Source: a virus
Length of the DNA stretch: 36,323 bases
Virus record (IMG/VR): IMGVR_UViG_3300038317_000069
Coordinates: 1 to 36,323 of that record
Strand: one strand, 5' to 3'
Positions within the stretch are counted from its first letter, which is position 1. Each line of letters starts with the position of its first letter. The notes under the pieces were generated by a model. It made no database searches. It was not told where the DNA came from and saw only the letters and a list, made by a program, of their open reading frames with translations. The translations under genes and the position numbers were made by a program. Below are positions 3,646 to 36,323 of the stretch, one piece after another.

Positions 3646-4566
3646 GTGGCTGAGTATTCGAGATTTTTTGACCATATTGATGGGGATAGAAGTTATAACG
3701 CAGATGATTTTGCAGAATATTTTAGGCAAGTATTGACAAATGGAATATTAAATGGTGGAGAAAATTTGCAAGTTTATGTAAATGGCACTGACAGAATAGC
3801 CAGAATAAAACCGGGGAAGGCTTGGCTAGAAGGGTACTTTTATAAATTGACTGATGAATTACAATTGCCTTTGGAAGAAGCTCATGGCACATATGATAGA
3901 ATTGATAGAATTGTAATAGGGCTAAATACTAATACAGATGTTAGGAGTATAAAAGCATATGTAAAAACAGGTCTGCCAGCTTTTACACCAGTAGCTCCGG
4001 AAATAACGAGAGAAGAGAAAATATATGAAATTTCATTAGCGCAAATACTGGTAGTACACAATACAACGGCAGTGCCAATAGGAAATGTTACAGATGAAAG
4101 ATTAGATCCTAATGTGTGTGGTTTGGTAAATTCTCTTATACAGGTAGATACAGCAACTATGCAAGCTGAATTTGAAACTTTTATGGATACTTTAGCAGGA
4201 CAATCCTATGTAAGCCGAACTGAGTTTATTGAACACCAGGATGATACTACAACGCATATGACACCTGATGAAAAAAGTAAATTAGAAGGGATAGCAGATG
4301 GTGCACAAGTAAATACTGTAACAAGTGTAAATAGCAAAACAGGAGCGGTAAAATTAACACCTTCTGATGTGGGAGCGGCAACATCGGCACAAGGTACTTT
4401 GGCAAACAATGCATTGCCTAAAGCGGGTGGTACTATGACAGGTATATTAATAGTTCAGTCAAACACCTCATATACGACACGACAAGTACACAACATTATA
4501 CTATCTACAGCAGATGCAGATGTAAATGCTATGCAAAATGGCGACATATGGATTAAATACAAATAG
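3646..4566 (+). CDS. Putative tail fibre / baseplate-associated structural protein
   Basis: GTG start after AAGGAAGGTGA. Placed in the tail-tip module; N-terminus SRFFDHIDGDRSYNADDFAEYF is seen in prophage fibre-module proteins. Function inferred from position. Confidence 0.5.
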   Translation: MAEYSRFFDHIDGDRSYNADDFAEYFRQVLTNGILNGGENLQVYVNGTDRIARIKPGKAWLEGYFYKLTDELQLPLEEAHGTYDRIDRIVIGLNTNTDVRSIKAYVKTGLPAFTPVAPEITREEKIYEISLAQILVVHNTTAVPIGNVTDERLDPNVCGLVNSLIQVDTATMQAEFETFMDTLAGQSYVSRTEFIEHQDDTTTHMTPDEKSKLEGIADGAQVNTVTSVNSKTGAVKLTPSDVGAATSAQGTLANNALPKAGGTMTGILIVQSNTSYTTRQVHNIILSTADADVNAMQNGDIWIKYK

Positions 4567-4581
4567 GAGGTGGTGGTATAA

Positions 4582-5139
4582 ATGGCTGAATATTATGATG
4601 AAATTACTGAATATAAAGAAGATGACTATATACTGCCAGCAAGTGGAACGAGTTTTGGTACTGAGGATATTTGTATGGCAATGCTTAGGGATAATGATAC
4701 TAGCATATTATTTGGCGCAGTTAAATTTTCTATACAAGATAGTGAGCCAAAATCAGGGTGGAACTGGTATTATGACAGAGAGTTATATGTGTGGCATTTA
4801 AAACCAAGTGTAACTTATGCTGTAGTATTTGGAAATACGAGGTGTGTGAATGGAACTAAATTTTTTAAATTTATGAATGTAAACAATAAAATAGTTATTC
4901 TCCAACCACTACCTGAAGCTGTGTACAGAGGGGAAGTAAAAGTAGCTTATTATCCTCCAAGTGGGGACACTAATAAATATTACTTTCATTTATATGAAGA
5001 TTGGACACCACCTAATATGGTTCCCAAAATAGATGGAATTGTAAAAACATATGCTGATGGTCGTACAAAAATAGATGGTGCATTAAGGCAAGTAGATAAA
5101 GTTTGGACTAAAGTTAATGGTGTTTTAAGGGAGGTGTAA
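4582..5139 (+). CDS. Hypothetical protein of the tail fibre module
   Basis: 185-aa ORF preceded by RBS AGGAGGTGGTGG. No recognisable motif. Confidence 0.6.
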   Translation: MAEYYDEITEYKEDDYILPASGTSFGTEDICMAMLRDNDTSILFGAVKFSIQDSEPKSGWNWYYDRELYVWHLKPSVTYAVVFGNTRCVNGTKFFKFMNVNNKIVILQPLPEAVYRGEVKVAYYPPSGDTNKYYFHLYEDWTPPNMVPKIDGIVKTYADGRTKIDGALRQVDKVWTKVNGVLREV

Positions 5140-6175: not shown

Positions 6176-6946
6176 ATGATTATTGATATATCGCATCATC
6201 AGGACCCGTCAAAAATGAACTATGACAAGTTAGCAAAGCAAGTGGATTTGGTGATTATTAGAACTCAATATGGTAGTAAAATGTTAGACAGGCACTATAA
6301 GATCCATAACAGGGAATTTCAAAAGAGAGGTATCCCTACTGCTTGTTATGCTTGGATTAGGGGTGTTTCTATTGCAGACATGAAAAAGGAAGCGACTGAT
6401 TTCTACAATAGGACAAAAGAATTCAACCCATGCTTCTGGTTCCTGGATGTAGAGGAGAAATCTATGTCTGACATGAGAAGTGGAATATCTGCTTATGTAG
6501 CTCAATTAAGAAAGTTAGGAGCTAAGAAAGTTGGTATCTATATAGCTCATCATCTCTACAAAGATTTTAATTTAAACTTAAATGAGGCTGACGCGATTTG
6601 GATTCCTCACTATGGTAAGAATGATGGTACAATTAATAGCAAACCTCAATTCTCCTGTGATATACACCAGTTTACAAGTGTAGGAAGGTTAGATGGCTAC
6701 AATGGAAATTTGGATCTAAATAGGCTAATGGGAACTAAACCGCTTGAATTTTTCACAGGGAAAGAGAATACTACATCAAAAGAGGAAGATAAGGAGAAAG
6801 TGAAGGTTGATATACCAAGCTCATGGGCTAAGGAGTATTGGGATTGGTGTGTAGAAAAAGGATATCTTGATGGAAGTAGACCATTGGAACCTATAACCAG
6901 AGAGGAATTAGCAACTGTGCTATATAGATTAAAGGAGGATAAATAA
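6176..6946 (+). CDS. Endolysin: GH25 muramidase domain plus a single SLH-like cell-wall-binding repeat
   Basis: N-terminus IIDISHHQ...VDLVIIRTQYG matches the GH25 DxSxxQ signature. C-terminus PSSWAKEYWDWCVEKGYLDGSRPLEPITREELATVLYRL resembles an SLH repeat. Confidence 0.85.
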   Translation: MIIDISHHQDPSKMNYDKLAKQVDLVIIRTQYGSKMLDRHYKIHNREFQKRGIPTACYAWIRGVSIADMKKEATDFYNRTKEFNPCFWFLDVEEKSMSDMRSGISAYVAQLRKLGAKKVGIYIAHHLYKDFNLNLNEADAIWIPHYGKNDGTINSKPQFSCDIHQFTSVGRLDGYNGNLDLNRLMGTKPLEFFTGKENTTSKEEDKEKVKVDIPSSWAKEYWDWCVEKGYLDGSRPLEPITREELATVLYRLKEDK

Positions 6947-6947
6947 T

Positions 6948-7247
6948 ATGACAGGTGAACAAATATTATCTTTTATATTACCAGAGATATTAATTTTAAT
7001 TCCAGTTTTAATTATTATTGGTATGATGTTAAAGAAAATTGAAAACATAAAAGATTGGACTATACCTATTATTCTTGGAGTGATAGGTATTTTATTTGCC
7101 ATAATGATTTTAGGATTCAAGGAGGGCTTTAGTGGTCCTATAATTTTAAATGGAATCCTACAAGGAATTCTAGCAGCAGGAATGGCAGTGTATGTGCATC
7201 AATTGGTTATACAATCTACAAGGAAGAGGAAAGAGGACCGGGCTTAG
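6948..7247 (+). CDS. Holin (three TM segments, basic C-terminus)
   Basis: 99 aa with three hydrophobic helices and a QSTRKRKEDRA tail. Adjacent to the endolysin. Confidence 0.8.
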   Translation: MTGEQILSFILPEILILIPVLIIIGMMLKKIENIKDWTIPIILGVIGILFAIMILGFKEGFSGPIILNGILQGILAAGMAVYVHQLVIQSTRKRKEDRA

Positions 7248-8026: not shown

Positions 8027-9057
8027 TTATTTTGAGTTGAAAATCATATTATCTAACTTGTCTGAAGTCTCCCTTTCCATGTCATCCAAGACATGAGAAT
8101 ATAAATCTAAAGTAGTAGAAATATTTGAATGACCCAATCGTTCACTTGCAATTTTAGCAGGTATATTTGATTTAAGCATAAGAGTTGCATTTGTATGCCT
8201 TAGGTCATGTAATCTTACATGTTTTAAATTATTCTTTTTTATAAAATCGCCAAAGGTTCGACTAAAAGTAGCAGGGTTGATTAGATCTCCCATTTCAGTT
8301 GTAAATATAAAATTGCTATCTTTATAATATTTGCCTATTTTAAGTTTATTCCCTTTTTGTTTTAGTTCTTGTTTCTTTAAAAGAGCAATAATATTATCTG
8401 ATATAGGGATTGCCCTTGTGCTTTCTTCAGTCTTAGGTTCTTTTAAAATTAATTCTGTACCATCATCTCCACCACGAACTAAATTTCTTTGTATAGATAT
8501 AGTTTTGTTTTTATAGTCTATATCTGACCATTTTAAGGCTAAAAGCTCCCCACGCCTTAATCCAAGGAATAGTATTATTGAAATAGGAACTTCCAGCCTG
8601 TCCCCTTCTAGTGCCTTAAGAAGTATTTTTATTTCATCTATATTTAATACTTCAGCTTTATACTTTTTGCCTTTGGAACTTCTACATGGTCAGCAGGATT
8701 AATTTTTATTAATTGCCACTCCTTAGCGTCCTGAAGAGCTTTTCTTAACATTCTATGATGATGTAGCACAGTTTGATTAGACAATGTTTGAAGTTTTAAA
8801 TTGTAGTATTTCTGTAAGTGCAAAGGTTTTAATTCTGCTAGTTTTATATTTCCTAGCTCTGGTATTATGTGGTTTTGCATCATGGATTTGTAACCATATA
8901 CTGTAGTGGGTGAAAGATTATGTTTTCTTTGTTCAATCCAATAGTTTAAATATTCACCTAATGTATCTGTGGAAGGTATTATAAAAGTGCCTTGCTCTAA
9001 CTCATAAAGTATTTTATTTAGGTCAGTTTGTGCCTCTTGCCATGTTGTTAATATTCT
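8027..9057 (-). pseudogene. int: Tyrosine recombinase (phage integrase) remnant: no canonical start, arm-binding domain missing, -1 frame break at an A5 run
   Basis: Three minus-strand pieces:
- 9057..8644 reads TWQEAQTDLNKILYELEQGTFIIPSTDTLGEYLNYWIEQRKHNLSPTTVYGYKSMMQNH...NPADHVEVPKAKS, then a stop.
- The frame 8689..8027 continues KKYKAEVLNIDEIKILLKALEGDRLEVPISIILFLGLRRGELLALKWSDID...
- That frame then reads HVRLHDLRHTNATLML...GHSNISTTLDLYSH, which gives the catalytic R, HxxR, H and Y.
The two frames join only if GCAAAAAGT (+ strand 8664-8672) had one more A. An in-frame TAA at 9060-9058 lies 10 nt inside the repressor gene. Confidence 0.85.
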
Positions 9058-9440
9058 TTATCCTCTTCATCCTCAATAGCCTTTATAATCCTAATAATTT
9101 GTTTAATACCATTAGGGGATAAGTCCTTAGTTTGTTTAAATAATAATTGCAAATCTTCTCTTTCTTTTAATTCATTCCAGAACTCAAACAATTCAGGGTC
9201 ATCTTCTACAGCATTAGTTATTTCATCTGATGTATTTCTTATGTTTGATATACCTAGGAGATAATCAACACTTGTACCAAAAAAGCCTGCTAGCTTTATA
9301 AGCTTTTCATAATCAGGCTGCTTTCCTTTTGTTTCATATTCTGCTATTGTTGCCCTTCCGACACCTAAAATATCAGCAATATCTTGTTGTGTAAATCCTT
9401 TTTCTTCTCTTAATGACTTTAATCTTTCGCTAAACATCAT
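9048..9440 (-). CDS. CI-like repressor (XRE-family HTH)
   Basis: LKSLREEKGFTQQDIADILGVGRATIAEYETKGKQPDYEKLIKLAGFFGTSVDYLLG is a classic XRE HTH. Transcribed divergently from a Cro-like gene. RBS AAAGGGGTGA. Confidence 0.85.
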   Translation of the reverse strand: MMFSERLKSLREEKGFTQQDIADILGVGRATIAEYETKGKQPDYEKLIKLAGFFGTSVDYLLGISNIRNTSDEITNAVEDDPELFEFWNELKEREDLQLLFKQTKDLSPNGIKQIIRIIKAIEDEEDKEY

Positions 9441-9490: not shown

Positions 9491-9594
9491 CAATTAGTGC
9501 CTATAATGAACAAAATAAAAGGAAAACTTAAAAAAACAGTTGACATAGTGCCTAACTGGAACTATAATATAAATATACAGTTCCAGTTAGGCAC
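9477..9594. promoter_or_regulatory. Operator set of the lysis-lysogeny switch
   Basis: GTGCCTA(A/T) at 9477, 9497 and 9548, and inverted TTAGGCAC at 9587-9594. A perfect 16-bp inverted repeat GTGCCTAACTGGAACT (9548-9563) / AGTTCCAGTTAGGCAC (9579-9594) wraps the rightward promoter. Confidence 0.7.
9540..9568 (+). promoter_or_regulatory. Rightward early promoter (PR-like)
   Basis: Consensus TTGACA (9540-9545), 17-nt spacer, TATAAT (9563-9568). It is 44 nt upstream of the Cro-like gene. Confidence 0.8.
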
Positions 9595-9611: not shown

Positions 9612-9830
9612 TTGAGAATTAAATTAAAAGATATTAGACTAAAAAACAACTTAACCCATGAAGAAATAGCAAAAAAAGTAGGAATTAACAGAGCAACATA
9701 TACGAATATAGAACTAGGACACAAAAACCCATCTCTTGATGTTGCTATAAGAATAAAAAAAGCACTTAATTATAAGGATGATGATATTTTTTTAGTTACT
9801 AGGTGTCAAAATGGCACTAAGAGTAAATAA
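9612..9830 (+). CDS. Cro-like XRE-family HTH regulator
   Basis: TTG start after AAAGGAGGT. LKDIRLKNNLTHEEIAKKVGINRATYTNIELGHKNPSLDVAIRIKKAL. Confidence 0.8.
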   Translation: MRIKLKDIRLKNNLTHEEIAKKVGINRATYTNIELGHKNPSLDVAIRIKKALNYKDDDIFLVTRCQNGTKSK

Positions 9831-30380: not shown

Positions 30381-30702
30381 GATTACCAAGAATACTTTCG
30401 ACAATAAGGCAGTAGAGGCTACAGTAAGAGCTGCTATAGGAGTATATGCAGATACTGCAGCTAAGAAAATGGAAGTAGAGGCTAAACGAAATGCTCCTTG
30501 GACAGATAGGACCAGTAATGCTAGGAATAGTATCCGTAGTGATTTTGGATGGAAAGGTAAACATGCAGTAATATCCCTTAGTGGTAATACAAATTACTTT
30601 CCATATCTAGAACTAGCTATGGAGAAGAAATATGCAATATTGGTACCCACTATACAAAGAAATGCTCCTGAGGTTTTAAGGGCATATAGAAAGTTGGTGT
30701 AA
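30370..30702 (+). CDS. HK97 gp10-like tail-head joining protein
   Basis: AKKMEVEAKRNAPWTDRTSNARNSIRSDF...YFPYLELAMEKKYAIL resembles the HK97 gp10 family. Confidence 0.65.
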   Translation: MGFKITKNTFDNKAVEATVRAAIGVYADTAAKKMEVEAKRNAPWTDRTSNARNSIRSDFGWKGKHAVISLSGNTNYFPYLELAMEKKYAILVPTIQRNAPEVLRAYRKLV

Positions 30703-31022
30703 TGATGGAAGATTTATTATGGATTATATTAGCACATTACATTGCAGATTATCCATTGCAAGGGGATTTTCTTGTACAAACAAAGGGTAAATACTGGTAT
30801 AGCTTACTAGCCCATTCAATAATTTATGGGTTAACTATAGCATTGACATTAAAGTTGTTAGGGTTATTTGCTATATGGAAGGCGGTAGTTTTGGTAGCAA
30901 GTCACATGATCATTGATTATAAAAAAGCTACTGCTAAAAACAAAGACAAGTCATTAACGACATATCTTTATATAGACCAAGCTTTACACATAGCAATAAA
31001 TATATTTTTGGTGGTGGTTTAG
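30702..31022 (+). CDS. Polytopic membrane protein (DUF3307-like) embedded in the connector block
   Basis: 106 aa with 3-4 hydrophobic helices. The N-terminal LAHYIADYPLQGDF resembles the H-x3-D-x2-LQ signature I associate with DUF3307. Its start overlaps the preceding stop (TAATGATG). Confidence 0.6.
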   Translation: MMEDLLWIILAHYIADYPLQGDFLVQTKGKYWYSLLAHSIIYGLTIALTLKLLGLFAIWKAVVLVASHMIIDYKKATAKNKDKSLTTYLYIDQALHIAINIFLVVV

Positions 31023-31373: not shown

Positions 31374-31925
31374 ATGGCAACTACAACGCCTGTTGAATTC
31401 CCATTGGCAAATATTGCTAGAGTGGAAATCGCAACAGAAGAAGAAGTTCCAAAGGAATACAGACTTACTGATGTAGCTAGTGAAGCAGAGGTAACTGCAT
31501 ATGTTTCACAGGGCGAAGAAAAAGAGTTAAGAGTTAAGAATACTATTAAGGCACAGAACAAAACAGAGGATATTGTAATGGGCTATGATGTTAAATTAGT
31601 ATCAGCTACTATGATTCCTGAAATATTGGCTCTAGTTGATGGAGGAACATGGGACGGAACTACTGCTAAGAAATACACAGCTCCACCTATAGGAAGTCCT
31701 GTTACAAGAACACCATTTACAATGCATATATATACAGAAGAAAAAGATGGGGATGGTTCAACAAAGAGCTATGTTAAATTCTCTTATAAGCATTGTACAG
31801 GAAAACCTGTTAATTATACATTAAAGGACGGAGAGTTCTTTGTTCCTGAATTAACAGCAAAATCTAGACCAAAACTTGGAGAAAGTCCAGTAGAGTTTGA
31901 AATATTAGACAAACTACCTGCTTAA
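31374..31925 (+). CDS. Major tail protein (phi13-type)
   Basis: 183 aa, followed by the chaperone pair and the TMP. Synteny and size typical. Confidence 0.8.
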   Translation: MATTTPVEFPLANIARVEIATEEEVPKEYRLTDVASEAEVTAYVSQGEEKELRVKNTIKAQNKTEDIVMGYDVKLVSATMIPEILALVDGGTWDGTTAKKYTAPPIGSPVTRTPFTMHIYTEEKDGDGSTKSYVKFSYKHCTGKPVNYTLKDGEFFVPELTAKSRPKLGESPVEFEILDKLPA

Positions 31926-31935
31926 TTGCAGGTAG
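31914..31935 (+). terminator. Hairpin spanning the major tail protein stop codon (possible attenuator)
   Basis: CTACCTGC (31914-31921) / GCAGGTAG (31928-31935) with loop TTAATT. Only a weak T tract follows. Confidence 0.4.
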
Positions 31936-31961
31936 TTCTATTTATATAGGAGGGATAAATT

Positions 31962-32396
31962 TTGAGTGAAATATTAAGTATAGAAAAATTAAGAGAAATG
32001 GCTAATATAGTAATTGATATACCTAATTTTGAAAACAATGGAACTATAAAGGTTAGGGTACAAAGACCAAGGCTAATGGCAATGGCTAGTCAAGGGAAAA
32101 TTCCAAATCATTTAATGAGTATAGCGGTCCAGATGGTAACGGGTAGAAAGAATGCATCTAATAAAAATAATGAAGATATTATAAAAGATGCTTCTCTCAT
32201 GTTGGAATTATATTGTAAGGCTTGTTTAGTAGAGCCTAGTTATGAAGAATTCAAGGATATTATGACAGATGACCAGGCTGACGCTATATTTAGTTGGGCT
32301 ATGGGGTTAAATAATAAATTAGATTCCTTTCGTAAAAACAAAGGAAATGGCTCAAGTAATAATAATGGCGAAACATTACAGGAAAAGACCAAGTGA
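31962..32396 (+). CDS. Tail assembly chaperone (gpG analogue)
   Basis: TTG start after AGGAGGG. 144 aa between the major tail protein and the TMP. Confidence 0.75.
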   Translation: MSEILSIEKLREMANIVIDIPNFENNGTIKVRVQRPRLMAMASQGKIPNHLMSIAVQMVTGRKNASNKNNEDIIKDASLMLELYCKACLVEPSYEEFKDIMTDDQADAIFSWAMGLNNKLDSFRKNKGNGSSNNNGETLQEKTK

Positions 32397-32577
32397 GATA
32401 TTAAACATTGATAATGATTATTTAGCTTATTGTTTTGATGAAGTAGCTTTATATTTGGAAAGTGAGGCTACTGATAACAATGGTAATATTAATTGGAATA
32501 GGATAAGATGGGAAGACGATAAAGGGAAATCTAATAATTCTAATAAAGATTTAATGGATTTTATACGAAAACATTAA
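32323..32577 (+). CDS. Frameshift extension of the tail assembly chaperone (gpT analogue), in the +1 frame
   Basis: The frame is open from 32323, overlaps the 3' 74 nt of the chaperone gene, and has no convincing RBS for ATG 32347. (32347-31962) mod 3 = 1, so this is the +1 frame. The -1 frame is closed by TAA at 32333 and 32357. Confidence 0.6.
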   Translation: MPFVKTKEMAQVIIMAKHYRKRPSEILNIDNDYLAYCFDEVALYLESEATDNNGNINWNRIRWEDDKGKSNNSNKDLMDFIRKH

Positions 32578-32591
32578 AAAGATACCTTTCC

Positions 32592-32620
32592 TTGAAGAAA
32601 TATTTGGCAACAGTTATAAT
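32592..32620 (+). promoter_or_regulatory. Sigma-70-type promoter of the moron 32655..33314
   Basis: TTGAAG (32592-32597), 17-nt spacer, TATAAT (32615-32620). Confidence 0.65.
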
Positions 32621-32654
32621 GTATGTAACAAATAAAAACAAGGGAGGAAATCTT

Positions 32655-33314
32655 ATGAAGAAGGAACTAAAAGGGTTTGTTATTGGTGTTATTATAACAG
32701 TAATGCTAATGAGTACTGTCGCCTTTGCAGGAGGGGTGAAACAGAAGATAGAAGTAGCACTTAATTCAATAAACATAGCTGTAAATGGAAAACCAGTGAA
32801 GGCAGATAATATTTTATACAAAGGGACAACTTATGTACCATTAAGGGCAATATCTGAAATGTTAAGGGAAGATGTAGATTGGAATGGAGATACTAATACA
32901 GCTAGCATTAATGATAAGGATTTAAATAAAGCAGACCCAAAAGACGTAATAGGGAAATCTGATTTACCTTATACAGTAAGAGCAAAGAACGATATGGCTA
33001 TTACCATTAATTCTTATGAAGCAAGTAAAAGTGGCATAAAGTTAAATGTAACGATGACAAATCATTCTAGTGTGTCAGATAAAGGTAAAATAATGTTATC
33101 CACCTACGATATTTATGATGGAAAAGAAACATTAAAGTTTATTAGTATGGACAGAGTATTTTATGACACAGATTATTTAAGGGCTGGGCAATCAGTAACC
33201 GGAGATGTAATCTATTCAGGATTATCACATGAAACAGATACTTTCACATTGTATGGTAAGCTATGGCAATATATAGACACGGAAGAATTTAAGATTACTT
33301 TTAAAGTAGAATAA
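32655..33314 (+). CDS. Secreted or membrane-anchored moron protein: copper-amine-oxidase-N-like domain plus DUF4352-like beta domain
   Basis: ATG 32655 after GGGAGG. Signal/anchor KGFVIGVIITVMLMSTVAFA. VNGKPVKADNILYKGTTYVPLRAISEMLREDVDWNGDTNTASI matches the Cu-amine-oxidase N-terminal-like fold. The C-terminal beta-rich domain has MAITINSYEASKSGIKLNVTMTN. The track start 32592 is the -35 box. Confidence 0.7.
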   Translation: MKKELKGFVIGVIITVMLMSTVAFAGGVKQKIEVALNSINIAVNGKPVKADNILYKGTTYVPLRAISEMLREDVDWNGDTNTASINDKDLNKADPKDVIGKSDLPYTVRAKNDMAITINSYEASKSGIKLNVTMTNHSSVSDKGKIMLSTYDIYDGKETLKFISMDRVFYDTDYLRAGQSVTGDVIYSGLSHETDTFTLYGKLWQYIDTEEFKITFKVE

Positions 33315-33319
33315 TAAAA

Positions 33320-33346
33320 AGGCATCCTTTTGGATGTCTTTTTTAT
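33320..33346 (+). terminator. Rho-independent terminator of the moron
   Basis: AGGCATCC (33320-33327), loop TTTT, GGATGTCT (33332-33339), then TTTTTT. Confidence 0.75.
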
Positions 33347-33371
33347 GCCTAAAAATAGGTAGGTGACGAAA

Positions 33372-36323
33372 TTGGCGATAAATGCAGGTAGTATAGTAGC
33401 AAGTTTAGATTTAAATACTGGACAGTTTTCAACTAAGCTAGAAAAAGCACAAAAACAAGCAGACGGGTTTGCAGAAAAGTTAAAAGGATATGGTGGAGCA
33501 TTTGAGGAGTTAGGAAAAGGGCTTACATTAGGAGTTACTGCTCCATTAACTGCTATAGGTGTTGCAGCAGGGAAGATTGGAATGGATTTTGAGGCAGGCA
33601 TGAGCAGGGTACAGGCAATATCCGGAACAACTAAAGATGAAATGAGTAAGTTGAGCGAACAAGCCTTGCAACTTGGTGCTGATACTGCTTTTAGTGCAAG
33701 TGAAGTAGCATCGGGTATGGAAAATTTGGCAAGCGCTGGATTTAATGCAAATGAGATTATGGAAGCTATGCCTGGGCTACTTGATTTAGCAGCTGTTTCA
33801 GGAGGGGATATTGCTCAATCTTCCGAAGTTGCTGCTAGTGCGTTACGTGGCTTTGGTCTTGAAGCAGGTGAAGCAGGGCATGTGGCAGATGTCTTTGCAA
33901 GGGCGGCAGCTGATACTAATGCAGAAACAGCAGACATGGGAGAAGCTATGAAATATATAGCTCCTGTGGCTCATGCTATGGGATTAAGTCTTGAAGAAAC
34001 TGCGGCTGCTATTGGAATCATGTCTGATGCGGGAGTTAAAGGGTCACAGGCAGGTACTACATTACGTGGAGCTTTATCTAGGTTAGCCAAACCTACAAAA
34101 GCAATGAACGAAGTTATGGATGATTTGGGTATTTCTTTTTACGATTCCGAAGGTAAAATGGTATCTTTAAAAGACCAAATTGCAATACTGCAGGATGCAA
34201 CTAAAGGTATGACACAGGAGCAGAAAAATCAAATGCTTGTTACCTTGTATGGGCAAGAATCCCTTTCCGGTATGTTAGCATTGGTTGATGCAGGCCCTGA
34301 AAAGCTTGACACCCTTACGACAAGTTTGGAAGAGTCAAACGGTGCTGCTGCAAAAATGTCGGATACCATGATGGATAATACAAAAGGCAAATGGGAAGAA
34401 ATGATGGGGGCATTAGAAACGGCCGGCATTAAAGTATTTAATGTGATAGCACCTGCAATAACAAAAATTGCAGAGAAAGTTGGAGAATTGGCGGATAAAT
34501 TTTCAAATCTTAATCCCAAAACTCAAGAAACCATAGTTAAAATGGCAGGAATTGCCGCTGCTATTGGCCCTGTTTTAGTTGTAGGCGGCAAAATGGCTAA
34601 CGGCATAGGCTCTATCATAGGATTGTTTTCTAAATTTGGTGCAGGAGCTAATATAGCGACTACTGCTGCAAGTGCATTAGGAGGAGCAAGCGGTTTAGGT
34701 AGCGTTATTACTACTGGTACAGAAGCAGGAGGTGTGATAGCCTCTCTAGGCGGAGCAGCAGGAAGCGGAGGAATATTAGGAAGTTTAACTTCTGGATTAG
34801 GTACAAGTTTAGCAGCTATGAATCCCTGGGCTCTTGGAATAGCAGGAGCTGGTGCAGTTGCTTATGGACTATACAAGTGTTTAAGTGAGGATTCGATACC
34901 GGCTGTACAGATATTTGATGACACTATATCTGAAGGTACTCAAAAGGCTGTAGGTAGTTTTTTAGAGTTTAACGATAAAGTAACTCTTGCTTTAGACCAA
35001 TTAGCTTGGAGTGGTCAAACAGTAACAGGAGAAATGGCAGAAAACATATCAGGAAACTTTTCACAGATGGCAGCTGATATTCAAGCTGGGCTAGATAAGA
35101 ACTATGAAGAGTCTTTAGGAAAGATGCAAAATTTTGTAACCGGCAGCACTTCTCTTTCAAAAGAAGAGCAGGACCAGATATTAAATAATATGCAAGAGGG
35201 TTATGAAAATAGAAAGCAAAGTGTATCTGATGGTGAAGCAAGGATAAAAGAGATACTTGATACAGCTTCCAGTAAAAAAAGAGCCTTAACTAAATCAGAG
35301 CAGGAAGAAATAAATTCTATTCAAGAGGACATGGTAAACACAGGAATTAATGTTCTATCTGAAGGTGAAGTGGAATCTAAGTCTATTATGGAAAGAATGA
35401 AAGCTCAAGCTGGAGAAATTACAGCTACTCAAGCTGCAGAAGTTGTTAAGAATAGTTTGGAGCAAAAAGATAAAAGCATTAAAGCAGCCAATGAGCAATA
35501 TAACGATGTAGTAAAAGAAATTATCAGGCAAAGAGATGAAGCTGGAACTATTACTAAAGAACAAGCTGATAAACTAATTGAAGAAGCTACTCGTCAAAGA
35601 GATGAATCTGTTAAAAAAGCAGAAGAAATGCATACAAATGTAGTCAATGAAGCTAAAGCACAGGCTAAAGAGCATGTAAATGAAGTAGATTGGGAAACTG
35701 GTGAAATAAAAACCAAATGGCAAATAATGTGGGAAGATATAAAAAAGTATGCTAAAAAAGCAGGCCAAGCATTTTTAGATCTTGCAAAAGCAATTCCAGG
35801 GTACCTTAAAGATGTGCCAAGTAAAATGTTTAATATAGGTAAGGATATTATAAATGGTCTAATAAATGGTATTAAATCACTTGCACATAAAGTAACGGAG
35901 ACAGTTTCTAATGTAGCGCATTCTATTTCAAATGGATTTAAGAAAGTATTAGGAATTCATTCTCCTTCAAAGGTATTTGAAAAGTTTGGAAAATTTACAG
36001 TTGAAGGTTATGTAGAAGGAATAGAAAAAAATAAATACAAGGCTATTAAGTCAGTAGAAGATATGGGGAACATGGTAATAAAACAATATGATAAGTTGGG
36101 AGACGCAGTTATAACAGCCTTGCAAAATAAGTATAAAGAAGAAGAGAGAATACAATTAGATAGTCTTAGAACACAAACAGAAAATGTTAAACGAGAAACT
36201 GATGAAAGATTAAGACAATATGATAGAGAATTACAAGCTAAGCTGAAAGTATTAGATTTAGAAACAACAGATGCTGAAAAAGAAATACAAGACCAAATAG
36301 ATGCTATTAATAATAAGACTAAG
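33372..36323 (+). CDS. Tail tape measure protein, N-terminal part (runs off the window end and continues at base 1)
   Basis: Not in the ORF track because it has no stop in the window.
- TTG 33372, 5 nt after AGGTGA (GTG 33363 is also possible; TAG at 33360-33362 closes the frame upstream).
- LAINAGSIVASLDLNTGQF...MSRVQAISGTTKDEMSKLSEQALQLGADTAFSASEVASGMENLASAGF...AMKYIAPVAHAMGLSLEE is the TP901-type TMP core.
- A glycine-rich hydrophobic centre follows.
- Joined to 1..1110 through the overlap, this gives 3963 nt (1320 aa). Confidence 0.9.
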   Translation, partial: MAINAGSIVASLDLNTGQFSTKLEKAQKQADGFAEKLKGYGGAFEELGKGLTLGVTAPLTAIGVAAGKIGMDFEAGMSRVQAISGTTKDEMSKLSEQALQLGADTAFSASEVASGMENLASAGFNANEIMEAMPGLLDLAAVSGGDIAQSSEVAASALRGFGLEAGEAGHVADVFARAAADTNAETADMGEAMKYIAPVAHAMGLSLEETAAAIGIMSDAGVKGSQAGTTLRGALSRLAKPTKAMNEVMDDLGISFYDSEGKMVSLKDQIAILQDATKGMTQEQKNQMLVTLYGQESLSGMLALVDAGPEKLDTLTTSLEESNGAAAKMSDTMMDNTKGKWEEMMGALETAGIKVFNVIAPAITKIAEKVGELADKFSNLNPKTQETIVKMAGIAAAIGPVLVVGGKMANGIGSIIGLFSKFGAGANIATTAASALGGASGLGSVITTGTEAGGVIASLGGAAGSGGILGSLTSGLGTSLAAMNPWALGIAGAGAVAYGLYKCLSEDSIPAVQIFDDTISEGTQKAVGSFLEFNDKVTLALDQLAWSGQTVTGEMAENISGNFSQMAADIQAGLDKNYEESLGKMQNFVTGSTSLSKEEQDQILNNMQEGYENRKQSVSDGEARIKEILDTASSKKRALTKSEQEEINSIQEDMVNTGINVLSEGEVESKSIMERMKAQAGEITATQAAEVVKNSLEQKDKSIKAANEQYNDVVKEIIRQRDEAGTITKEQADKLIEEATRQRDESVKKAEEMHTNVVNEAKAQAKEHVNEVDWETGEIKTKWQIMWEDIKKYAKKAGQAFLDLAKAIPGYLKDVPSKMFNIGKDIINGLINGIKSLAHKVTETVSNVAHSISNGFKKVLGIHSPSKVFEKFGKFTVEGYVEGIEKNKYKAIKSVEDMGNMVIKQYDKLGDAVITALQNKYKEEERIQLDSLRTQTENVKRETDERLRQYDRELQAKLKVLDLETTDAEKEIQDQIDAINNKTK
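36225..36323. repeat. Terminal overlap copy 2, identical to 1..99
   Basis: 99/99 identity with bases 1-99 by direct comparison. Confidence 0.97.

Follow-up and report, generated by a model that had tools for sequence, protein, structure and literature searches.

A predicted exported stalk-domain protein encoded at the chaperone/tape measure junction of a Clostridia/Tissierellia-type phage: a candidate superinfection-exclusion moron

Introduction

The first moron to be named, gene 15 of phage HK97, is located at the junction between the tail assembly chaperone genes and the tape measure protein (TMP) gene, and its product, gp15, is a superinfection-exclusion protein (Juhala et al. 2000; Cumby et al. 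2012; reviewed in PMC3594210). In the definition of Juhala and Hendrix, a moron is a stretch of extra DNA with its own promoter, its own terminator and a deviant base composition, which is expressed from the repressed prophage. HK97 gene 15 is an independent transcription unit that is absent from close relatives; its product, made by the prophage and directed to the envelope, keeps the genomes of other phages from entering (PMC3594210). The present study concerns a gene at the same position in IMGVR_UViG_3300038317_000069, a complete 36.3-kb IMG/VR record with terminal repeats, the whole of which (36,323 nucleotides) was analyzed and is hereafter called the window. The gene (32655..33314, plus strand) encodes a protein of 219 amino acids (aa), designated P0001, and the balance of the evidence leans toward a moron in a cargo slot whose product is exported, expressed by the prophage and directed at the exclusion of other phages.

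In concept and position, P0001 can be regarded as a Gram-positive counterpart of the HK97 gp15 moron. The comparison was one of position and concept, in which both genes are accessory and occupy the same junction. HK97 gp15, from an E. coli phage, belongs to the YebO family and is small and located in the inner membrane, so that homology with P0001 is not expected; P0001 is a predicted exported protein of 219 aa, composed of a signal peptide, a stalk domain and a beta-sandwich, is encoded by a Gram-positive (Clostridia/Tissierellia-type) phage, and has a predicted function. A second system for comparison is Ltp of Streptococcus thermophilus phage TP-J34 (PF07553), a surface-exposed protein that blocks DNA injection (PMC3952083). 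Both Ltp and P0001 are prophage-encoded, modular and extracytoplasmic, with a targeting or anchor part, a spacer and a C-terminal domain, which in Ltp is the active one; moreover, sister cargos of P0001 in related phages (L028 and L082/83) share its N-terminal module and have two Ltp repeats. P0001 itself, however, contains no Ltp repeat and ends in an unrelated beta-sandwich. Ltp is a lipoprotein with a lipobox and a Ser-rich spacer, whereas the P0001 family has a non-lipoprotein signal peptide followed by a stalk; ltp is placed in the lysogeny module, whereas the P0001 gene is placed in the tail operon.

Mpr of Mycobacterium smegmatis is membrane-bound, and the resistance to phages that it confers depends on its C-terminal DUF4352 beta-sandwich (PMC12596739, PMC9262609); DUF4352 proteins of temperate phages can replace this domain, and escape mutants map to a tail protein (PMC9262609, PMC12596739). 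P0001 resembles Mpr in that its best fold matches are phage DUF4352/DUF5067 proteins, but it falls below the Pfam DUF4352 threshold and is without the N-terminal nuclease region, and it may share neither the topology of Mpr nor its mechanism, which is that of a nuclease attacking injected DNA. Finally, P0001 carries PF07833 above threshold, as do secreted stalk proteins of Firmicutes (e.g., a Paenibacillus Cu/Zn-superoxide dismutase (SOD) fusion, 8imd); unlike the stalk of those proteins, that of P0001 is part of an N-terminal cassette (65–80% identical) that is exchanged between phage cargos. In lambdoid coliphages, morons at the chaperone/TMP junction are textbook material; to our knowledge, they have barely been described for phages of anaerobic Firmicutes, Ltp is the only well-understood superinfection-exclusion domain of Gram-positive bacteria, and no function has been established for the stalk domain PF07833.

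A cargo slot at the chaperone/tape measure junction

The slot in the window is delimited on its left by the stop codon of the T gene (32575–32577), the frameshift extension of the tail assembly chaperone, and on its right by a hairpin with a T-run (33320..33344, plus strand). All of the elements that a sequence-only reading of this DNA had listed can be read from the sequence where that reading had placed them. A predicted sigma-A-type promoter-like site (32592..32620, plus strand) consists of TTGAAG at 32592–32597, a 17-nt spacer and TATAAT at 32615–32620; it is followed by the ribosome-binding site (RBS) GGGAGG (32642..32647, plus strand), which is 7 nt 5' of the ATG at 32655, and by the coding sequence of P0001, which closes with two stop codons in succession (TAA TAA, 33312–33317). 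The hairpin is formed by AGGCATCC/TTTT/GGATGTCT at 33320–33339, with T6 extending to 33344 and an RNAfold energy of -15.1 kcal/mol; a pattern scanner picked it on the minus strand only, because on the plus strand the extension of the stem through the flanking A/T runs consumes the T tail. Public gene callers begin the gene at TTG 32592 and obtain a 240-aa open reading frame (ORF), P0002, which is over-extended, since all homologues of P0001 (142 in number, all starting MKK) begin with MKK..KGF.

Syntenic loci were gathered with a tail-tube profile, the window proteins were mapped by tblastn onto 60+ loci, and the ORFs and sequences of the junction were listed for each locus, with two extra junctions obtained from homologue look-ups. 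A close relative was defined by a tail tube that is at least 70% identical or by the same gene order, which gave 12 distinct junctions; the tally draws on metagenomic contigs, some of which are fragments. In three of these 12 junctions (L008, L033 and L017/L020), the slot is empty, such that the T gene is followed directly by the TMP gene and the hairpin or the TMP RBS is found within 0–10 nt of the T stop codon. The remaining nine are occupied by one gene each, always in the same orientation, and all nine cargos begin with a signal or transmembrane segment. A module composed of a signal peptide and a stalk is shared by six of the nine; it is continued by the beta-sandwich in the window, by two Ltp repeats in L028 and L082/83 (PF07553, 1.7e-35 for L028; P0063 also), by another domain in L079, and by a second stalk domain, an SNase domain and an Ada-type zinc module in L032 and L016. 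The cargos of L031, L036/L018 and L019 are proteins of 183–279 aa with N-terminal membrane segments.

The chaperone/TMP junction is a cargo hotspot in this lineage. The earlier description of the junction as normally invariant does not hold, given that nine of the 12 distinct junctions are occupied and that HK97 gene 15 is found at the same position (PMC3594210). On the other point, the proposal of an accessory insert between the chaperones and the TMP gene, for which a comparison of syntenic phages had been suggested, was borne out when that comparison was made: the gene is absent from L008, L033 and L017/L020, and other cargo takes its place elsewhere. It is very probable that segment 32578–33319 is an accessory cargo gene, a judgment that covers the moron or insert part alone; as in the definition of a moron, this is extra DNA in the window that is missing at the same site in close relatives. 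In a distant clade of Clostridium phages (phiCT19406A and its relatives; L001 7208–7534, L039, L070 and L074), the slot either holds a zinc-ribbon ORF or is empty; this ORF is conserved, is 108–113 aa long and without a signal peptide, and is followed by a hairpin and a T-run.

Domain organization of P0001 and its modular family

The sequence-only reading had assigned to the product an N-terminal signal or anchor helix, a stalk domain and a beta-rich domain resembling DUF4352, and these domain calls proved right, with the stalk above the PF07833 threshold and the beta-sandwich matching DUF4352/DUF5067 by fold. Residues 1–25 (32655..32729, plus strand) form a signal peptide or N-terminal anchor, as judged by inspection, by the family alignment and by an AlphaFold2 (AF2) model. 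By inspection, the N-terminus reads MKKELK, continues with the 19-residue hydrophobic stretch GFVIGVIITVMLMSTV and ends in AFA/GG; small residues at -3/-1 (AFA, AFG, ALG, VFA) are conserved across the family alignment, and residues 3–22 are helical in the AF2 model. The marks of Sec export can thus be recognized by inspection, namely a positive n-region, a hydrophobic h-region and small -3/-1 residues. The N-terminal region of P0001 contains no Cys, and so no lipobox, and AFA/GG is a site of the signal-peptidase-I type.

The stalk domain (Cu_amine_oxidN1, residues 29–85; 32739..32909, plus strand) matches PF07833 at E 3e-10, with 40.4 bits against a gathering cutoff of 24.2. It is followed by the C-terminal Ig-like beta-sandwich (residues 96–219; 32940..33311, plus strand), which resembles DUF4352, DUF5643 and DUF5067 in fold, is modeled by AF2 with a predicted local distance difference test (pLDDT) score of mostly 84–95, and whose best BFVD matches are phage DUF4352/DUF5067 proteins (2e-5 to 8e-4). 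This C-terminal domain is rare, with 19 representative clusters matched among 1.84 billion proteins, and its sequence is 57–80% identical across nine homologues, with 40 invariant columns. A search of the PDB by sequence matched P0001 only to the stalk that is fused to Cu/Zn-SOD (8imd, E 0.0023), and a profile of the C-terminal domain gave nothing significant against PDB sequences.

The modular character of the family is evident from its two halves. The N-terminal 88 residues are 65–80% identical (57–70/88) in eight of the nine homologues compared, with only 30/88 in L003, and the C-terminal parts across the family comprise DUF4352, Ltp, SNase (+Ada-Zn), cyclophilin, LRR/internalin-like and MORN domains or are unassigned. 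The C-terminal domain of the window, in turn, is also found behind a coiled-coil N-terminus (P0010 and P0011) or behind two stalk domains (P0007). Genomic context was considered for a set of ten family members, either looked up or present in syntenic relatives. Five occupy the slot (those of the window, L028, L079 and L082 and the double-stalk SNase type), two are just upstream of terminase genes (P0003 in L005; P0027) and two are beside recombinase or integrase genes (P0008 and P0025), while P0015 and P0014, which consist of a signal peptide, a stalk and DUF4352, are found in bacterial defense islands between BREX (PglZ, BrxL) and McrBC-type genes. The loci of these islands are L010 8001–10576 and L014 7268–7951, the former of which also encodes an OB-fold (tRNA_anti-like) protein and another stalk-domain protein alongside.

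In 300 sampled genomes from the class of one host metagenome-assembled genome (MAG), the N-terminal module was detected at E <=1e-15 in 13, and the C-terminal domain in none. This distribution is patchy and mobile, and thereby fits an accessory gene. Moreover, the SNase-type relative P0060 matches a candidate defense protein of PADLOC-DB 2.0 (6.6e-32). These comparisons show, at the level of sequence, an export and stalk module that behaves as a constant part and is recombined with interchangeable C-terminal domains, across phages as well as defense islands.

Promoter and hairpin of the slot

The promoter-like site precedes the start codon by 35 nt and falls within a non-coding gap of 77 nt. 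This gap is the only sizeable one in the tail module, and the site within it is at the right distance from the RBS. The near-consensus promoter of the sequence-only reading is present in the gap where it had been placed, but it scores only 10/12 and is statistically unremarkable on its own: the window contains 21 matches of 10/12, compared with 25.6 +/- 6.3 in Markov-simulated sequence, and the region contains 25 promoter matches, compared with 35.5 in its shuffles. The probability of a chance match in such a gap is about 2%, as a rough estimate.

All of the sister cargos are preceded by a conserved extended -10 element (TGnTATAAT), which stands right after the T stop codon; it reads (A)TGGTATAAT in most of them, is degenerate in L016 and L082, and is missing at the empty sites. 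The cassette of the window has a different left end, with a -35/-10 pair of its own. Its promoter is a prediction supported by its position, by the presence of TGGTATAAT before the sister cargos, and by a homology to L005 that starts at TATAAT. In L032 (7190–7247), the slot promoter element TGGTATAATATCCCTTAAA is tandemly duplicated before the SNase cargo.

Of the 12 close-relative junctions, 11 retain the hairpin, its T-run and the sequence (C)ATGCC...AGGTAGGTGA that follows, among them those of the empty L008 and L033; only L017/L020 is without these elements. The motif CATCC-N3-6-GGRTGYNTTTT, for which 0 occurrences are expected in shuffles, is found once per matching locus and at the chaperone/TMP junction, with L005 as the sole exception. 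When the 12 hairpin sequences are aligned, 96.7% of the cells pair and three of the eight pairs show compensatory changes; the observed covariation score was reached by 0/500 shuffles, and slid registers pair only 37–70%. This covariation count is for the close clade, and the hairpins of the distant clade are described from individual folds, in which other stems are found at the same place (e.g., GACATA/TATGTC and GATCATA/TATGATC) and, at empty sites, a longer hairpin spans the T stop codon. A search of 32400–33500 with Rfam gave no match that came near the gathering scores; the sub-threshold ones were all terminator-like.

In every case, the cargo is upstream of the slot hairpin. The fold stability is about -11 to -16 kcal/mol at occupied sites, compared with -6.5 and -7.7 at two empty sites, and stronger hairpins at occupied sites would fit, in what is a small sample, an insulation of the late genes from the prophage promoter. 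These data bear upon two earlier claims. It had been stated that the gene has a strong terminator of its own; a hairpin with T6 does follow the gene, but it is not evidence of a gene-borne terminator, because two of the three empty junctions (L008 and L033) have this slot element as well. It had also been stated that the insert places a terminator directly upstream of the essential TMP gene. Such an element is indeed present, although as a property of the phage backbone and not as a consequence of the insertion, because the covarying hairpin is found at empty sites as well. In the backbone, it may serve as an attenuator between the abundant tail-tube/chaperone messages and the low-copy TMP.

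The only site of the hairpin outside the junction is in L005, where it is 3' of P0003, a 69%-identical homologue encoded upstream of terminase genes. The DNA homology between the window and L005 runs from TATAAT through the hairpin, to ...TTTTTTATGC, and it is on this account that the promoter -10 element, the gene and the hairpin can be considered capable of moving as one unit. With regard to an own terminator, the slot hairpin is thus present at the empty L008 and L033, yet travels with the homologous cargo in L005, and it might be a landmark for recombination or insertion as well as a terminator. An integron-like attC reading of the hairpin is speculation only, there being no integron integrase and a single cargo per slot.

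A further hairpin of 10 bp (-16.7 kcal/mol) is found directly 3' of the tail-tube gene, at 31912–31937 in the window. The chaperone genes are bracketed by this hairpin and that of the junction, and the pair may bring about a stepwise attenuation of the tail operon.

Function of the cargo gene

On the favored reading of P0001 as an exported exclusion protein, the cargo would sit in an expression slot that is prone to recombination and extends from the T stop codon to the hairpin before the TMP RBS. In the lysogen, it would be transcribed from its own sigma-A-type promoter (32592–32620), and the transcript would end at the slot hairpin, thereby keeping prophage transcription out of the TMP gene and the distal tail genes; in lytic growth, the cargo would be co-transcribed with the late operon, with part of the transcription reading through the hairpin. 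After export, P0001 would be located on the outside of the membrane or at the wall, where the beta-sandwich would most likely bind either a component of the incoming phage (tail tip or tape measure) or the phage receptor. As a result, adsorption or DNA entry would be blocked, that is, superinfection exclusion would occur in the manner of Ltp and HK97 gp15.

The argument for exclusion is circumstantial and proceeds by analogy. In the same slot, sister cargos join Ltp repeats to the N-terminal module that P0001 has, paralogues are present in defense islands and the SNase-type relative matches a PADLOC candidate. The protein encoded at the same position in HK97, gp15, is a superinfection-exclusion protein (PMC3594210), and in Mpr the DUF4352 domain is required and escape mutants are found in a tail protein (PMC12596739, PMC9262609). 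Each of these would point to an exclusion function for P0001.

Several observations weigh against this reading. The base composition of the cargo is not deviant, as it would be in a moron by definition: its GC content is 0.324 compared with 0.336 for the genome, in the 39th percentile of 660-nt windows, and so carries no foreign signature. Promoter-like matches show no genome-wide enrichment over chance, and the stable lysogeny of this particular genome may be doubted, since a frameshift divides its integrase. Both the Ig-like sandwich and the stalk domain are generic building blocks of extracytoplasmic proteins and serve in many roles, and the association with Ltp cargos and defense islands is an indirect one, amounting to guilt by association. 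By their own thresholds, moreover, P0001 is outside the Ltp, DUF4352, DUF5643 and PADLOC families: the Ltp repeat PF07553 has no match in P0001; DUF4352 (PF11611) has none either and matches one of nine C-terminal homologues (E 3.6e-4); DUF5643 (PF18705) reaches 19.1–21.8 bits against a threshold of 34 and is sub-threshold in seven of the nine homologues; and PADLOC-DB 2.0 gave no match for P0001, P0014 or P0015. The fold matches of the C-terminal domain in the PDB are weak (adaptin ear domains, B. anthracis 3fbq and B. subtilis YcdA 4r4g; E ~2-4e-3), and tblastn of P0001 against 50,697 INPHARED phage records returned no match.

One alternative is a lysogenic-conversion surface factor that would benefit the lysogen through adhesion, biofilm formation, the cell wall or the binding of an environmental ligand, and not through the exclusion of phages. 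The stalk PF07833 and the Ig-like sandwich are generic binding modules of the extracytoplasmic space, the C-terminal domains of the family are very varied (LRR/internalin-like, cyclophilin, MORN), the N-terminal module is sporadic in bacterial genomes (13/300 sampled) and P0001 is without a PADLOC match; such a factor is nevertheless rather unlikely, as it is opposed by the Ltp repeats that are found on the same module in the same slot in two lineages, by the paralogues within BREX/McrBC defense islands, and by the precedent of HK97 gp15, which acts against phages from the same position (PMC3594210). A role in the lytic cycle is less probable still. The cargo would then be transcribed with the late operon and yield a protein secreted at or after lysis, for instance for a masking of receptors on debris or neighboring cells that spares the progeny, as with T5 Llp, and the orientation of the cargo with the late operon, the weak promoter evidence, the broken integrase and the fact that no terminator was found between the tail-tube hairpin (31912–31937) and the cargo are all in keeping with it. 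However, the extended -10 TGGTATAAT, located after the T stop before sister cargos and missing at empty sites, suggests a transcription that is independent of the late program, and some homologues have integrases as neighbors or belong to bacterial islands, settings that offer no late operon.

The other two alternatives fare worse. A silent passenger, acquired recently and without a selected function in this phage, would suit the rarity of the C-terminal family (the 19 clusters noted above), but it is very improbable in view of the intact ORF with its strong RBS, the identical copies in two other public assemblies, the occupation of the slot in most relatives, and a C-terminal domain in which 40 columns are invariant and identity is 57–80% across nine homologues. 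A virion or tail-assembly component, such as an extra chaperone or a decoration protein, is scarcely credible: only the position inside the tail module speaks for it, and it was rejected on the grounds of the signal peptide of P0001 and of the pattern of presence and absence, the gene being absent from close relatives with otherwise collinear tail genes and giving way to unrelated cargo (a nuclease, for example, or Ltp), with homologues outside tail modules altogether.

A broader extension of the favored reading, under which P0001 is an exported exclusion protein, can be offered only tentatively, as it is more likely to be wrong than right. In this extension, the slot would be framed by the extended -10 TGGTATAAT and the covarying hairpin, and the export module with its swappable effectors would form a polymorphic toolkit for superinfection exclusion at the envelope, shared with defense islands.

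Source phage and neighboring features

The layout of the window is that of a temperate phage. An endolysin and a holin are encoded at 6176–7247; a tyrosine integrase on the minus strand is distributed over two overlapping frames (8644–9057 and 8027–8689) by a frameshift, which reflects either decay or a sequencing error; and a cI-like repressor (9048–9440, minus strand) is followed by a cro-like gene (9612–9830). A perfect TTGACA-17-TATAAT is found at 9540, in the repressor/cro intergenic region, which suggests that the phage uses sigma-A-type promoters. Prophages related to it occur in MAGs of Tissierellia and Clostridia, and a Wansuia hejianensis contig of 433 kb harbors relative L018 in its integrated state. 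The phage is not a one-off assembly, since L006 and L007 (assemblies SRR27955146 and SRR1562008) have copies in which an identical cargo protein is encoded between the same T and TMP genes. A blastn search of the region against phages gave matches only in the TMP and tail-tube genes.

Upstream of the slot, the tail tube (31374–31925; phrog_6686) is followed by the gpG-like tail assembly chaperone (31962..32396, plus strand; phrog_6280, 2.5e-34), which is syntenic in all relatives, and by its gpT-like frameshift extension (32347..32577, plus strand; phrog_6541, 1.2e-17). Downstream, the RBS of the TMP gene, AGGTAGGTGA (33357..33366, plus strand), is conserved in relatives, and the TMP gene itself (plus strand; PF10145, 1.1e-58; phrog_1533) extends over 33372..36323 and continues across the circular junction into 1–1110. 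Its start is likely TTG 33372, because this codon gives the N-terminus MAINAGS, as in relatives; GTG 33363 falls within the RBS.

Two additional observations were made. A gene for a DUF3307 membrane protein (30702–31022 in the window) is located within the head-tail connector block and has the look of a second insertion: of the close lineage, only the window and L028 have it (88% identical), all other relatives lack it between the 110-aa and 115-aa genes on either side, and its PHROGs category is that of moron/auxiliary membrane proteins. In the insert-free L008 (3322–5088), the TMP gene is broken after ~98 codons by a Cys-rich ORF of 274 aa (3770–4594), which ends in an HNH-like motif, and TMP picks up again at 4876; this interruption may be a homing endonuclease or an intron.

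Conclusions

The intrinsic-terminator-like hairpin within the tail operon is a conserved feature of the phage backbone, and it bears both on the dosage of the tail genes and on the insulation of a prophage-expressed cargo from the late genes. To the described chaperone/TMP-junction morons, the present analysis adds a busy cargo hotspot in a Clostridia/Tissierellia prophage lineage, all of whose cargos are envelope-targeted, together with a conserved export and stalk module that is reused with different effector domains, Ltp included. A small set of candidates for exclusion proteins emerges from it, as does a possible role for a rare, uncharacterized beta-sandwich domain.

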